Shown here: piece by piece, positions 21,001 through 33,000 of the stretch | How the letters are laid out: the number at the start of each line of letters is the position of its first letter | Numbering within the stretch: position 1 is the first letter of the stretch | Origin: Escherichia coli | GTDB taxonomy: Bacteria > Pseudomonadota > Gammaproteobacteria > Enterobacterales > Enterobacteriaceae | NCBI RefSeq assembly: GCF_050920415.1 | Contig: NZ_CP169309.1 | DNA: 64,000 bases | Strand: one strand, 5' to 3' | Made by a program: the position numbers

Positions 21001-24000
21001 TCTGGAAAAAGAAACCGTGCGTTGGTGCCGCGAAATGCTGCAAAACAGCCCGATGGCGCTGCGTTGCCTGAAAGCTGCGCTGAACGCTGACTGTGACGGT
21101 CAGGCGGGTCTGCAGGAGCTGGCGGGCAATGCCACCATGCTGTTCTACATGACAGAAGAAGGTCAGGAAGGTCGCAACGCCTTCAACCAGAAACGTCAGC
21201 CTGATTTCAGCAAATTTAAACGGAATCCGTAATGCGTAGCGCGCAGGTATACCGCTGGCAGATCCCCATGGACGCGGGGGTGGTTCTGCGCGACAGGCGG
21301 TTAAAAACCCGCGACGGGCTATACGTTTGCCTGCGCGAGGGCGAGCGCGAAGGGTGGGGGGAGATCTCCCCACTGCCGGGCTTCAGTCAGGAAACCTGGG
21401 AAGAGGCGCAAAGTGTGCTGCTTGCCTGGGTAAATAACTGGCTGGCAGGCGATTGCGAATTACCGCAAATGCCTTCCGTCGCCTTTGGCGTAAGCTGTGC
21501 ATTGGCTGAGCTGGCAGACACGTTACCACAGGCGGCAAATTTCCGTGCTGCACCGTTGTGTAATGGTGATCCTGACGATCTGATCCTCAAACTTGCCGAT
21601 ATGCCAGGTGAGAAAGTGGCGAAGGTCAAAGTGGGATTGTACGAAGCGGTGCGCGACGGCATGGTGGTGAATCTGTTGCTGGAGGCCATTCCGGATCTGC
21701 ATTTGCGTCTTGATGCGAATCGCGCCTGGACGCCGCTGAAAGGCCAGCAGTTTGCCAAATACGTTAACCCGGATTATCGCGGCCGCATCGCGTTTCTCGA
21801 AGAACCGTGCAAAACCCGCGAGGATTCCCGCGCCTTTGCCCGTGAAACGGGTATTGCCATTGCCTGGGATGAAAGCCTGCGTGAGCCGGATTTTGCCTTT
21901 ATGGCGGAAGAAGGCGTGCGAGCGGTGGTGATCAAACCCACGCTCACGGGCAGCCTGGAGAAAGTACGTGAGCAGGTGCAGGCGGCGCACGCGTTGGGGC
22001 TGACGGCGGTGATCAGTTCTTCTATTGAGTCGAGCTTAGGCTTAACGCAACTGGCGCGGATTGCCGCCTGGTTAACGCCAGACACCATTCCGGGGCTGGA
22101 CACGCTGGATCTGATGCAGGCGCAGCAGGTTCGTCGCTGGCCGGGTAGCCCGCTACCGTTAGTGGAAGTTGATGCACTGGAGCGGCTGTTATGATCTTCT
22201 CTGACTGGCCGTGGCGTCACTGGCGGCAAGTGCGGGGAGAAGCCATCGCCTTACGTCTTAATGACGAGCAACTTAACTGGCGCGAGCTTTGTGCTCGCGT
22301 CGATGAATTAGCCTCCGGCTTTGCGGCGCAGGGCGTTGTTGAGGGCAGCGGCGTGATGTTGCGGGCGTGGAATACGCCGCAAACGCTGCTCGCCTGGCTG
22401 GCGTTACTGCAATGCGGGGCGCGGGTGTTGCCCGTGAACCCTCAGCTGCCGCAACCGTTGCTTGAAGAATTGCTGCCCAATCTGACGCTGCAATTTGCGC
22501 TGGTGCCGGATGGGGAAAACACGTTTCCGGCGTTAACGTCGCTGCATATTCAGCAGGTTGAAGGCGTACATGCCGCTGCGTGGCAGCCGACGCGTCTGTG
22601 CTCAATGACGTTAACTTCTGGCTCCACCGGGTTGCCGAAAGCCGCTGTTCATACTTATCAGGCCCATCTTGCCAGCGCCGAAGGGGTGTTATCGCTGATT
22701 CCGTTTGGCGATCACGATGACTGGTTGCTCTCTTTGCCGTTGTTTCACGTCTCCGGTCAGGGAATTATGTGGCGCTGGTTATACGCTGGTGCGCGGATGA
22801 CGGTACGTGATAAACAGCCGTTGGATCACATGCTGGCAGGCTGTACTCACGCATCGCTGGTGCCGACGCAGCTCTGGCGTTTGCTGGTTAACCGCAGTTC
22901 CGTTTCCCTGAAAGCAGTGTTGCTTGGCGGCGCGGCGATCCCGGTCGAGTTGACGGAACAGGCGCGCGAGCAGGGTATTCGTTGCTTTTGTGGCTATGGT
23001 CTGACCGAGTTTGCCTCCACGGTGTGTGCGAAAGAAGCCGATGGTCTGGTGGACGTCGGTTCGCCGCTGCCCGGTCGGGAAGTGAAAATCGTTAACGATG
23101 AAGTGTGGCTGCGGGCTGCCAGCATGGCAGAAGGTTACTGGCGTAACGGACAACTGGTGCCGCTGGTGAATGACGAAGGCTGGTACGCTACGCGCGATCG
23201 CGGCGAGATGCATAACGGTAAACTGACCATTGTCGGGCGCTTAGATAATCTGTTCTTCAGTGGTGGCGAGGGTATTCAGCCGGAAGAGGTGGAGCGTGTA
23301 ATTGCTGCACATCCTGCGGTTTTGCAGGTGTTTATCGTTCCCGTTGCTGACAAGGAGTTTGGTCATCGACCGGTAGCGGTGGTGGAGTATGACCAGCAAA
23401 CCGTTGATCTTGGCGAATGGGTGAAAGATAAGCTGGCCCGTTTTCAGCAACCGGTGCGTTGGCTGACGCTTCCACCTGAACTGAAAAACGGCGGTATTAA
23501 AATTTCACGTCAGGCGCTAAAAGAATGGGTGCAACGTCAGCAATAATTATTGACTCTCCATTTCACTTCTCATTTCTGCCATTCCATTGCCGTTGATGAA
23601 GAGTTTATCTGTTAATCTGTAAATTGATGTGAAAACTCTTAGCAAACAGGATAATGCAATGGAATGGCTGGTCAAAAAATCGTGCTGCAATAAACAAGTT
23701 AACAGACATGTACTTATGCTCTGCGATGCTGGCGGCGCGATAAAAATGATCGCCGAAGTGAAGAGTGACTTCACCGTGAAAGTAGGGGATTTACTTTCAC
23801 CTTTGCAGAATGCGCTTTACTGTATTAATCGTGAAAAGCTACATACGGTGAAAATCCTCTCGGCAAGCAGCTACAGCCCCGATGAGTGGGAACGGCAGTG
23901 TCAATCGGCTGGGAAAACTCAGTAACGTTGTTTTGTCGTGGGCAGGAAAATCAGCATCAACCCACTCATAATACAGGCTACTCCCAGTAGTGCCTTCAGC

Positions 24001-30000: not shown

Positions 30001-33000
30001 CTCATACTCTTTCCCCAGTGATTCACAGGCTGTGGTGGTGCGCCTGATTAATTCCGGTAAGCTTTCCTGCTCGTTATAAACGGGAATAACCACCGAGACT
30101 TTCTTAACAGGGTGGATTTCAAACATGGCTTATTGTCCTGCGAGTTGCTGAAGGGCTGTGATGACGCGGTCGGCATCGGCGGTGGTCATATCCGGGAACA
30201 GCGGCAACGAACAGATGCGTTCGCTATTCCATTCGGTATTCGGTAACGACAGCTCGGGAAAACGCTCGCGATAATATTTTTGCGTGTGAGCGGCGCGGAA
30301 ATGTAACCCGGTACCAATGCCTCTTTCTTTTAACGCTTCCATCAACGCATCGCGACTGATACCACAACGTTGTTCATCGACACGAATAATAAACAGATGC
30401 CAGGCGTGAACGTGCGGCCAGGCGGGAAGGCTTAATGGCTCAAAGGGGAGAGCTGCCAGTGCTTGCTGATATTGCAGAGCAATTTCGCGCCGACGGGTGT
30501 TGAGGTGCTCTAATTTGGCTAACTGGGTCAGGGCAATCGCGGCGTTAATATCGGTCAGATTATACTTATAGCCCGGCGTTAAGACTTCAGCTTGCGGTGC
30601 ACGGCCCCAGGTTTGTCTGTCATAGGCATCGACACCCAGACCGTGAAATTTCAGCATCCGTAGCTGGCGGGCAAGGTTTTCATTATCAGTAACAATCAGG
30701 CCACCTTCCGCACAGGTAATATTTTTGATGGCGTGAAACGAAAAAATAGCGGTACCTTTTGCGCCAATATGTCGGCCTTTGTAATACGTACCGACGGCAT
30801 GGGCAGCATCTTCGATAACTGCGATGCCGTAACGTTCGCCAATGGCGCGAATGGCGTCAATATCTGCTGGCGCACCGGCATAATGCACCGGAATGATGGC
30901 TTTAGTGCGTGGCGTAATGGCTGCTTCGATCGTTTCAGGCGTGACCATCAGCGTATCGCGGTCGACATCCACCATTACCGGCGTTGCACCCAACAAGGAG
31001 AGCATATTGAGGGTTGAAACCCAGGTCAGGGAAGGCGTAATCACTTCATCGCCCTTGCCAATTTCCAACGCCATTAGCGTGATATGCATTCCGGCGGTGG
31101 CTGAACTGACCGCGATGGCATGCTGATTTCCCGTCAACTGGCAAAAGGCTTGTTCAATCGCCTGATTCTTCGGACCGGTTGTGATCCAACCAGATTCGAG
31201 AACCTCTTTAACTGCAGCGACTTCCTCCTCGCCCATTGCTGGTCGCGAAAAAGGCAAAAATTCTGACATTGTTTTTCCATCCGTCGTTGAATACTTTTCC
31301 ACTTATATTTGCCATAAAGAGTGTTGTGTATATTTTGCCATTTGGAGCGAAATTCTAAGGATAGAATATTAACTTAACCTTAAGAAATTAATATTAGACG
31401 TAAATATTGAAATTTTTATATTTTTTCTTATTTAGGCTTTGCATTTGGCAAAATTTTGAGGCATTTTGCCGGCATCGTAGGATTTTTAATATTACACCAA
31501 CTGCTAATTATCGCCAGAAATGTCGCTCAATTTCACGGTAATTGTCTGGTTGCACTTGTCTATAGGTGGAGTTTACGTGTTAGCTTTTTGCCGCTCTTCG
31601 TTGAAGTCAAAAAAATATTTCATCATTTTACTGGTGCTCGCTGCAATTGCCGGACTGGGTACTCATGCCGCCTGGAGTAGTAATGGTTTGCCACGTATCG
31701 ACAATAAAACACTGGCCAGACTGGCACAGCAGCACACGGTTGTCGTTTTGTTTCGCCATGCTGAACGTTGCGATCGTTCAACCAATCAATGCTTGTCAGA
31801 TAAAACAGGTATTACGGTCAAAGGTACCCAGGATGCCCGTGAACTGGGCAACGCTTTTAGCGCTGACATCCCTGATTTCGATCTTTATTCCAGTAATACC
31901 GTCCGGACCATTCAGTCGGCGACCTGGTTTTCAGCGGGGAAAAAGCTGACGGTAGATAAACGACTTCTTCAATGCGGTAATGAGATTTATAGTGCAATTA
32001 AGGACTTACAAAGCAAAGCACCTGATAAAAATATCGTTATTTTTACCCATAATCATTGCCTGACATATATTGCTAAAGATAAGCGTGATGCGACATTTAA
32101 ACCTGATTATCTGGATGGCTTAGTTATGCATGTGGAAAAAGGCAAAGTTTATCTGGATGGGGAATTCGTTAACCACTGATTTTTCAATCTGACAGCCAGT
32201 AATGGCTGCCATCACTGTTACAGAAGACCTTTCAAACGTAACGTTTTTCGGGTGGCGACATTCAAATCATAGTGCGCTAGATCTTCAGGTTTTACCCACG
32301 CGTAGTCCTGAAACTCTTCGTTTATTTTCACTTCTCGGTTGGCTGATACACAGTCAAAGATCAGGTAAATCATATAAATTTCTTCCTTGCGACCATCTGC
32401 ATACATCTTGGTACGAATATCATCGCTGAAGGTCCACGGCGTGATTTCTGTCAAAATCAGCTGTTCTCCCAGTTCTTCACGAATTTCGCGGCGTAGTGCC
32501 TCTTCAATTCGTTCACCAGGCTGCACGCCGCCACCCGAAAGCGCCCATTGACCGGGGAAAACGCCGCGATCGTCGGCCATTTTACACAGCAAATAAGCAC
32601 CATCATTTTGAATCAAAGGGCAAACAATAGTCCGTTGTCGCACGGGGATATTCCTTATAAATAAAAAGAAACCATGAGAATACGGCAACTCAGAAATATG
32701 TGAAAGTGACAGTAATCTCTTTTGCGATGATAACTGTACTTATTATTATTTTTGTGTGTATCGATACAGTGTGTTTATTTTTTCAGCGTTTAATTATTTG
32801 AGAAGTATTTAGTTACAATAAGTGACTAGATCCCTTTTTTCGCTCATTGAATCCTCAGCGCCAGGCAGTACAATCCCGCAGCTTTGGGAATTATGATTAA
32901 TTGCTTGTGGGAAAGGGGATAATGAAAAAAATTGCGCTAGCAGGTCTGGCCGGAATGCTGTTGGTTTCTGCATCGGTCAATGCAATGAGCATCAGCGGCC

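Follow-up and report, generated by a model that had tools for sequence, protein, structure and literature searches.

Is the pmrD-arnFETDACB locus of this Escherichia coli DNA an operon in working order, and is the direct repeat that lies upstream of arnB the site from which the regulator PmrA (BasR) activates it? The question concerns positions 23659-31384 of a stretch of 64,000 nucleotides (nt) from contig NZ_CP169309.1 (assembly GCF_050920415.1), analysed here at its full length and referred to as the window. The seven arn genes of this locus serve the modification of lipid A with 4-amino-4-deoxy-L-arabinose (L-Ara4N). The evidence presented below leaves us highly confident that the locus is E. 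coli's own arnBCADTEF operon, accompanied by its flanking regulators, in working order and with a PmrA-activated arnB promoter. The arn operon and the PmrA box, together with this interpretation, are already known textbook biology, and the copy described here is an ordinary intact one. In fact, few routes to polymyxin and colistin resistance have been studied as thoroughly as the operon, the box and the PhoP-PmrD-PmrA relay, and the importance of the present analysis is mostly confirmatory.

The PmrA box and the arnB promoter

The integrity of the genes, the site, its geometry and its conservation are direct observations of the present analysis. The arnB promoter comprises the following elements:

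31384..31368, minus strand: PmrA/BasR box CTTAAG-GTTAA-GTTAAT (CTTAAGGTTAAGTTAAT), at -41..-25 of the arnB promoter
31357..31352, minus strand: arnB -10 hexamer TAGAAT (TAAAAT in K-12), at -14..-9
31270..31343, minus strand: arnB 5' leader of 74 nt, counted from the projected start

The box stands in the arnB-ais intergenic region (307 bp, 32% G+C), from which ais is transcribed divergently, and 98 nt separate it from the arnB ATG. It fits the pattern CTTAAG-N5-NTTAAT exactly and is the sole such site in the window. A direct repeat of the PmrA/BasR type had been placed by the original prediction about 100 bp upstream of arnB and on the arnB strand, and this is precisely what is found. With respect to the looser consensus YTTAAK-N5-YTTAAK, the box has one mismatch, namely a G as the first base of the second half-site. 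A scan of the window with this consensus, allowing one mismatch, returns four matches for 2.83 expected, in other words no better than chance. Since such a scan is uninformative alone, a leave-one-out position weight matrix (PWM) was used instead, which excludes arnB and is built from the sites of K-12 ugd, eptA and pmrR, taken from the genome, and from the Klebsiella pneumoniae pbgP box. With this matrix the arnB box scores 22.55 bits and ranks first among the roughly 128,000 positions of the 64 kb, the runner-up reaching 12.8 bits. None of 60 simulated 64-kb sequences attained 22.55 bits, nor did any of 5000 simulations of the 32% G+C spacer composition. A matrix scan had been put forward as the way to examine the predicted box, which thus comes out of it at the top of the window and far above chance. 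The second-best match, located at 44770-44786 in the glpA-glpT spacer, was dismissed as a chance occurrence, as random 64-kb sequences have a mean maximum of the same value and the match is not followed by a -10 at 10 nt.

The position of the box can be referred to mapped transcription start sites. Differential RNA sequencing (dRNA-seq) of K-12 gives primary starts at 2365854 (+) for arnB, 2365723 (-) for ais and 2099734 (-) for ugd (PMC12987492 Table 1). A pairwise alignment of K-12 with the window, in which 355 of 374 columns are identical, carries the arnB start to 31343 (-) and the ais start to 31474 (+), an A in both cases. Specifically, the arnB start puts the box over the -35 region, with TAGAAT starting exactly 10 nt after the box, and the mapped start is consistent with the location that had been proposed for the regulatory site. 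The same spacing is found at other K-12 promoters: at ugd, CTTAAT-ATTAA-CTTAAT is followed after 10 nt by TATTCT at -12..-7, and at eptA and pmrR the box is followed after 10 nt by GAGCAT or CATACT. A sigma-70 consensus scan of 31200-31650 detects neither the arnB nor the ais promoter and returns no -35/-10 pair, as expected of an activator-dependent promoter that has no -35.

Conservation adds to this picture. Taken together, TTT, the box and the spacer form a 30-nt stretch that 5399 of 5414 E. coli genomes (99.7%) share without a change, while the coding sequences of the locus are about 2-6% different from those of K-12. The 17-mer is identical in K-12 and in enteropathogenic E. coli (EPEC), and the box is conserved across Escherichia, Citrobacter and Salmonella. 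On a broader scale, we collected the arnB loci of 80 Enterobacterales species representatives and took the best PWM match on the arnB strand within 400 nt upstream; 73 of the 80 loci have a match that scores 10 bits or more. For 68 of these 73 boxed promoters a TANNNT starts exactly 10 nt after the box, and the other offsets from 0 to 24 never account for more than six. Because the matrix saw the 17-mer only, the fixed spacing to the -10 represents independent support. The sequence rule of a box, exactly 10 nt and TANNNT, and the layout of box, 10 nt and -10-like hexamer shared by four K-12 PmrA targets, are worth retaining from the analysis. As a side observation, the arnB leader of Citrobacter amalonaticus S646 has an insertion of about 210 bp, the box being 310 nt from the ATG; the insertion presumably resembles an enterobacterial repetitive intergenic consensus/intergenic repeat unit (ERIC/IRU) element.

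Comparison with individual systems leads in the same direction. K-12 MG1655 has an identical 17-nt box and 10-nt spacer, and 294 of the 307 positions of its arnB-ais intergenic region match. In Salmonella enterica subsp. diarizonae the box reads CTTAATGTTAATTTAAT, stands 98 nt before the arnB ATG and is followed, after 10 nt, by TAGGGT; in the Klebsiella/Raoultella arnB loci collected here the 10 nt after the box are followed by TAAATT. The K. pneumoniae pbgP promoter, known from a crystal structure (4S05) and from cryo-electron microscopy (cryo-EM), likewise consists of tandem hexamers with a 5-bp spacer, which replace the -35 and bind a head-to-tail PmrA dimer, but its box differs in sequence (CTTAATATTATCCTAAG) and lies at -170 from the start codon. 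In addition, K. pneumoniae pbgP has another promoter, which depends on PhoP and carries a PhoP box (PMC2565834). In contrast, a PhoP PWM derived from eight boxes footprinted in Salmonella, with pmrD excluded (PMC3335776), finds no PhoP box in the arnB-ais spacer of the window (best 5.3 bits), in agreement with PMC2565834.

Genes and junctions of the operon

The stretch 23400-32300 is 100% identical to E. coli MFDS1022581 (NZ_CP169399.1). The coding coordinates are those assigned to that record by the Prokaryotic Genome Annotation Pipeline (PGAP), transferred to the window, and they agree with an independent translation. Scores against NCBIfam models are given with the cut-off of each model in brackets.

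22191-23546, plus strand: menE (PGAP)
23659-23925, plus strand: pmrD, connector protein protecting phospho-PmrA, 88 amino acids; equivalog NF011994, 171.8 bits (96)
23919-24305, minus strand: arnF, flippase subunit, open reading frame intact; equivalog NF002816, 138.9 bits (99)
24305-24640, minus strand: arnE, flippase subunit; equivalog NF011625, 210.9 bits (92)
24637-26289, minus strand: arnT, lipid A L-Ara4N transferase; equivalog NF009784, 815.2 bits (567)
26289-27179, minus strand: arnD, deformylase; equivalog NF011923, 522.6 bits (382)
27176-29158, minus strand: arnA, bifunctional formyltransferase and uridine diphosphate (UDP)-glucuronic acid oxidative decarboxylase; equivalog NF005998, 1258.3 bits (777)
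29158-30126, minus strand: arnC, undecaprenyl-phosphate 4-formamido-L-arabinose (L-Ara4FN) transferase; equivalog NF007986, 668.8 bits (529)
30130-31269, minus strand: arnB, UDP-L-Ara4N aminotransferase, 379 amino acids, starting MSEF; equivalog NF008658, 738.1 bits (631)
31577-32179, plus strand: ais, phosphatase acting on heptose(II)-phosphate of the lipopolysaccharide core, 200 amino acids, GTG start; subfamily NF011945 (PRK15416), 388.6 bits (142)
32218-32643, minus strand: nudI (PGAP)

In our own translation, none of the listed coding sequences contains an internal stop, and all starts and stops are correct. PmrD and all seven Arn proteins are full length and exceed the curated equivalog cut-offs. 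The claim that the seven arn genes are uninterrupted therefore stands, with the gene order of K-12 b2253-b2259, and so does the description of pmrD as convergent at the 3' end of the operon, where it overlaps the 3' end of arnF by 7 nt. In particular, K-12 MG1655 b2252-b2259 has the same gene order and strands, the same six junctions and the same 7-nt pmrD/arnF overlap, and its coding sequences have 93.7-98.2% nucleotide identity to those of the window. More generally, the arn locus has a match of 95-99% identity, always chromosomal, in 5422 of the 5426 complete genomes of E. coli. Where the K-12 annotation lets arnB begin with an ATG (2365910, 385-amino-acid form), the window has ACG (31285-31287), which supports the 379-amino-acid start chosen by PGAP as the conserved one. 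Residues N102, H104, D140, T432, S433, E434, Y463, K467 and R619 of ArnA are all present, as is the lysine of the ArnB motif SFHAIKN (residue 182 in the 379-amino-acid form); according to the structural literature these residues are catalytic, the ArnB lysine being the one that holds pyridoxal phosphate. An Rfam search of 22000-33500 at E <= 1, which covers the arnB leader, gave zero matches.

The junctions between the genes are tight. Only arnB and arnC are separated by a gap, of 3 nt, and the remaining five of the six arn junctions are overlaps:

arnC/arnA, minus strand: overlap of 1 nt, TAATG
arnA/arnD, minus strand: overlap of 4 nt, ATGA
arnD/arnT, minus strand: overlap of 1 nt, TGATG
arnT/arnE, minus strand: overlap of 4 nt, ATGA
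arnE/arnF, minus strand: overlap of 1 nt, TAATG

Overlaps had been reported beforehand for arnE/arnF and arnD/arnT. Both are present, but that list was incomplete, as three further ones bring the total to five. Because five of the six junctions overlap by 1 or 4 nt, the downstream arn genes are probably translationally coupled, a view in keeping with Shine-Dalgarno sequences that are weak or missing ahead of arnE and arnT.

The enzyme steps of the Arn pathway are established knowledge, and the products of the locus would be expected to follow them. The C-terminal domain of ArnA would oxidize and decarboxylate UDP-glucuronate, the product of which would be transaminated to UDP-L-Ara4N by ArnB and then formylated by the N-terminal domain of ArnA. 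Following transfer onto undecaprenyl phosphate by ArnC and deformylation by ArnD, the ArnE/ArnF pair would flip the lipid-linked sugar across the inner membrane. Finally, ArnT would attach it to lipid A phosphates, leading to a less negative charge and to reduced polymyxin binding.

Proposed activation, and possible occlusion and allele effects, at arnB

How would the box act? The proposed mechanism envisages that phosphorylated PmrA (BasR) binds CTTAAG-N5-GTTAAT as a head-to-tail dimer at -41..-25, in place of the -35. The bound regulator would then recruit sigma-70 RNA polymerase to the TAGAAT found 10 nt downstream (class II activation), and the promoter, which has no -35 element, would start transcription some 74 nt upstream of arnB. 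PmrA binding and PmrA-dependent induction, like the enzymology, are carried over by analogy from the literature on K-12, Salmonella and Klebsiella. Verified PmrA boxes of Salmonella have the form CTTAAG-N5-XTTAAT, and PmrA binds them head to tail (PMC3973317). In the cryo-EM structure of the activation complex, the PmrA box replaces the -35 and the dimer contacts the sigma-70 holoenzyme; moreover, the boxes of pbgP, ugd and pmrCAB sit at -35 (PMC10570014). In K-12, an arnB-lacZ fusion is up 31- to 72-fold with the constitutive BasS variant A20D, and BasR G53V acts similarly (PMC8151780). The response of a P_arnB-gfp reporter to Fe3+, low pH and low Mg2+ depends on pmrA, pmrD and phoP (bioRxiv 2020.05.05.080051).

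A number of points weigh against the overall reading of the locus. The first base of the second half-site is G instead of the consensus Y. The -10, at -14..-9, is somewhat distant from the mapped start, which is moreover a projection from K-12, the strain's own -10 being different by one base (TAGAAT instead of TAAAAT). The PhoP box proposed below for pmrD scores 12.15 bits, which is no higher than the best chance matches elsewhere in the 64 kb. A literature search without the primary papers found no DNase footprint, electrophoretic mobility shift assay (EMSA) or systematic evolution of ligands by exponential enrichment (SELEX) experiment with PmrA/BasR on E. coli arnB/ais. Finally, one EPEC study has PmrA blocking, not activating, the arnB promoter (PMC10729948).

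The last point amounts to a different mechanism, in which the box is a site of repression or occlusion where PmrA blocks RNA polymerase, and in which QseB, phosphorylated by PmrB, is the true activator of arn, as proposed for EPEC. In that organism arnB expression is constitutively raised when pmrA and qseC are both mutated, phosphorylated QseB shifts a 60-mer containing the exact 17-mer, which was identified as the PmrA site, and an element of a promoter predicted by BPROM lies inside the same site (PMC10729948). We nevertheless consider occlusion very improbable. The effects of BasS A20D and BasR G53V on K-12 arnB-lacZ and the need of P_arnB-gfp for pmrA are difficult to reconcile with a blocking PmrA. 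In addition, a box at -41..-25 and 10 nt before the -10 has the activating geometry of ugd, eptA and pmrR and of the activation-complex structure. As for the shifted oligonucleotide, it holds the PmrA box itself, and QseB binding is thus compatible with cross-recognition of one site.

Activation by PmrA might still be of little effect if the genes were intact but the pathway weak or silent in this particular lineage, through allele-specific changes such as the promoter variant, the five substitutions that PmrD has with respect to K-12 and the 12-13 found in each of ArnA, ArnB and ArnT. The E. coli lineage to which the window belongs is somewhat divergent: apart from the identical record, the nearest of 5426 complete genomes is that of strain N96, from a Tibetan pig, with 98.6-99.0% identity in three 8.9-kb samples. 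Divergence or recombination specific to the locus was considered and rejected, as two flanking 8.9-kb stretches show the same gap of about 1-2% to all other genomes. Two bases outside the box set the arnB promoter apart from the form common in E. coli, giving TAGAAT for TAAAAT (31352-31357) and A for G at -45 (31388). The exact 66-nt variant is rare (18 of 5414 complete E. coli genomes), no other protein of the locus is as diverged as PmrD (94.3% identity to K-12), and the connector activity of E. coli PmrD is condition-dependent (bioRxiv 2020.05.05.080051); these are the observations from which a weak pathway could be argued. Both promoter differences, however, lie outside box and spacer. TAGAAT and TAAAAT are each one mismatch from TATAAT, TAGAAT being also the state in E. 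whittamii, and the checked catalytic residues are unchanged. Since the divergence is the same in the flanks of the window, the rare promoter variant reflects the lineage and not the locus. We therefore regard a silent or weakened pathway as most unlikely.

The least tenable alternative, namely that the direct repeat arose by chance in an intergenic region of 32% G+C and that regulation lies elsewhere, is effectively refuted, as the yield of the loose scan and the four TTAA cores packed by this AT-rich region into 23 bp are outweighed by a PWM score unmatched in the intergenic-composition simulations, by the near-invariance of the site in E. coli, by its cross-genus conservation with a fixed 10-nt spacing to TANNNT and by its correct distance from the mapped start site.

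The pmrD promoter and the divergent ais gene

At the other end of the operon, two elements are predicted upstream of pmrD:

23591..23607, plus strand: candidate PhoP box CGTTGA-TGAAG-AGTTTA of the pmrD promoter, from the PhoP PWM
23620..23625, plus strand: predicted pmrD -10 TAAATT, 12 nt after the candidate PhoP box

From these elements, pmrD would probably be driven by PhoP, and PmrD, by prolonging the phosphorylated state of PmrA, would link low Mg2+ to arn expression. The PhoP PWM scores the stretch 23590-23608 at 12.15 bits, the second rank in the window and a value within the 64-kb chance range, reached by 31 of 5000 intergenic simulations (0.6%). With the same matrix the footprinted Salmonella pmrD box scores 8.6 bits, below the E. 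coli candidate, which matches nine of the 12 positions of (T/G)GTTTA-N5-(T/G)GTTTA. A spacing of 12 nt between box and -10 is that of the Salmonella 'architecture I' PhoP promoters, pmrD among them; the Salmonella pmrD promoter also has a leader of 27 nt (PMC3335776), and the leader predicted here would be of about the same length. On these grounds the candidate PhoP box of pmrD is likely, though not certain, and the pmrD start site may be placed from its spacing to the candidate box. By our own reading of the sequences, the E. coli box is shifted by a 6-nt insertion with respect to the Salmonella pmrD promoter. K-12 MG1655 has the same half-sites and one change in the spacer of the box. In the E. 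coli variants examined, changes affect the N5 spacer and the first base of the second half-site, the GTT..A cores, the spacer to the -10 and the -10 itself being fixed. As a separate observation, the 40-nt pmrD promoter (23588-23627) is far more polymorphic in E. coli than the arnB box, about 1100 genomes lying below 95% identity (682 of them in the range 90-95% and 440 in the range 80-90%).

PmrA of Salmonella acts on the pmrD promoter as well, which it binds and represses (bioRxiv 2020.05.05.080051; PMC3335776). The leave-one-out PWM finds no PmrA-like site in the menE-pmrD spacer of the window (best -3.7 bits), and therefore the Salmonella-type feedback of PmrA on pmrD has no visible counterpart here. 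An E. coli pmrD promoter lacking this feedback site is a useful by-product of the analysis. The start of the gene itself lies in an array, ATGcaATGgaATGg (23654-23666), which holds three ATGs in three frames, the second ATG being in frame. This is the arrangement of functional E. coli pmrD (bioRxiv 2021.07.26.453917). In Shigella flexneri, a 1-bp shift in the pmrD start array is reported to abolish PmrD production.

On the opposite side of the operon, the intergenic region holds a second promoter:

31462-31467, plus strand: -10 CATTTT of the ais promoter, with the projected start at the A in 31474 (K-12 start 2365723, minus strand)

An alignment of the arnB-ais spacers of six species, the window and K-12 reveals two conserved islands across three genera. 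The first is the PmrA box region and the second, GGCATTTT(GC) at 31460-31469, holds the ais -10, 17 nt upstream of which stands a -35-like TTGCAT. In six of the 80 species, belonging to Escherichia, to Salmonella and in part to Citrobacter, ais adjoins arnB. The pbgPE operon (pmrHFIJKLM) of Salmonella enterica is one such case, with pmrG/ais also divergent and an intergenic region of about 300 bp. The original prediction had equated Ais with PmrG and placed it divergently on the shared intergenic region. The divergent arrangement over 307 bp is correct and Ais passes the subfamily model, but the protein does not reach the cut-off of the PmrG equivalog NF052369 (145.4 bits, cut-off 170), and the ais promoter has no PmrA box of its own. 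Because of this failure, the equation of Ais with PmrG rests on synteny and on 67% identity to the neighbour of arnB in S. diarizonae; orthology of Ais and PmrG is suggested by these features.

The regulation of ais is less easily accounted for. In the K-12 dRNA-seq data, the antibiotic treatments that induce arnB and ugd also induce ais (PMC12987492). The leave-one-out PWM of the intergenic region finds no PmrA box at the ais -35, the arnB box being the single PmrA-type site of the 307 bp. A candidate ais PmrA box, CTTATT-TAGGC-TTTGCA (31427-31443), was rejected, as it falls outside the six best intergenic sites (the weakest of which scores 0.86 bits) and lies 18 nt from the -10. Read on the ais strand with a shift, the arnB box region gives TAGAAT-ATTAA-CTTAAC, followed after 10 nt by TAATAT (31389-31394), an arrangement kept in five of the six species with adjacent ais. 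The mapped primary ais start lies downstream of it by a further 70 nt and does not match this pseudo-box with its TAATAT. Since ais has no PmrA box at -35 and the pseudo-box is off the mapped start, the sequence does not explain its co-induction with arnB and ugd. The centre of the arnB box is at -33 for arnB and, in opposite orientation, at -98 for ais, the two starts being 131 bp apart. Tentatively, one asymmetric site of the OmpR family may serve the two divergent promoters together, whether through contact at a distance, through bending by way of the intervening A/T tracts or through relief of silencing, or the box region, read in reverse, may provide for a second ais start; we would call this possible, if rather doubtful.

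Outside the locus, the window is no verbatim copy of the otherwise identical NZ_CP169399.1: positions 45000-53900 match it in three pieces spread over 10.3 kb, and an IS2-family transposase is annotated in that record, which carries about 1.4 kb, probably an insertion sequence (IS) element, absent from the window.

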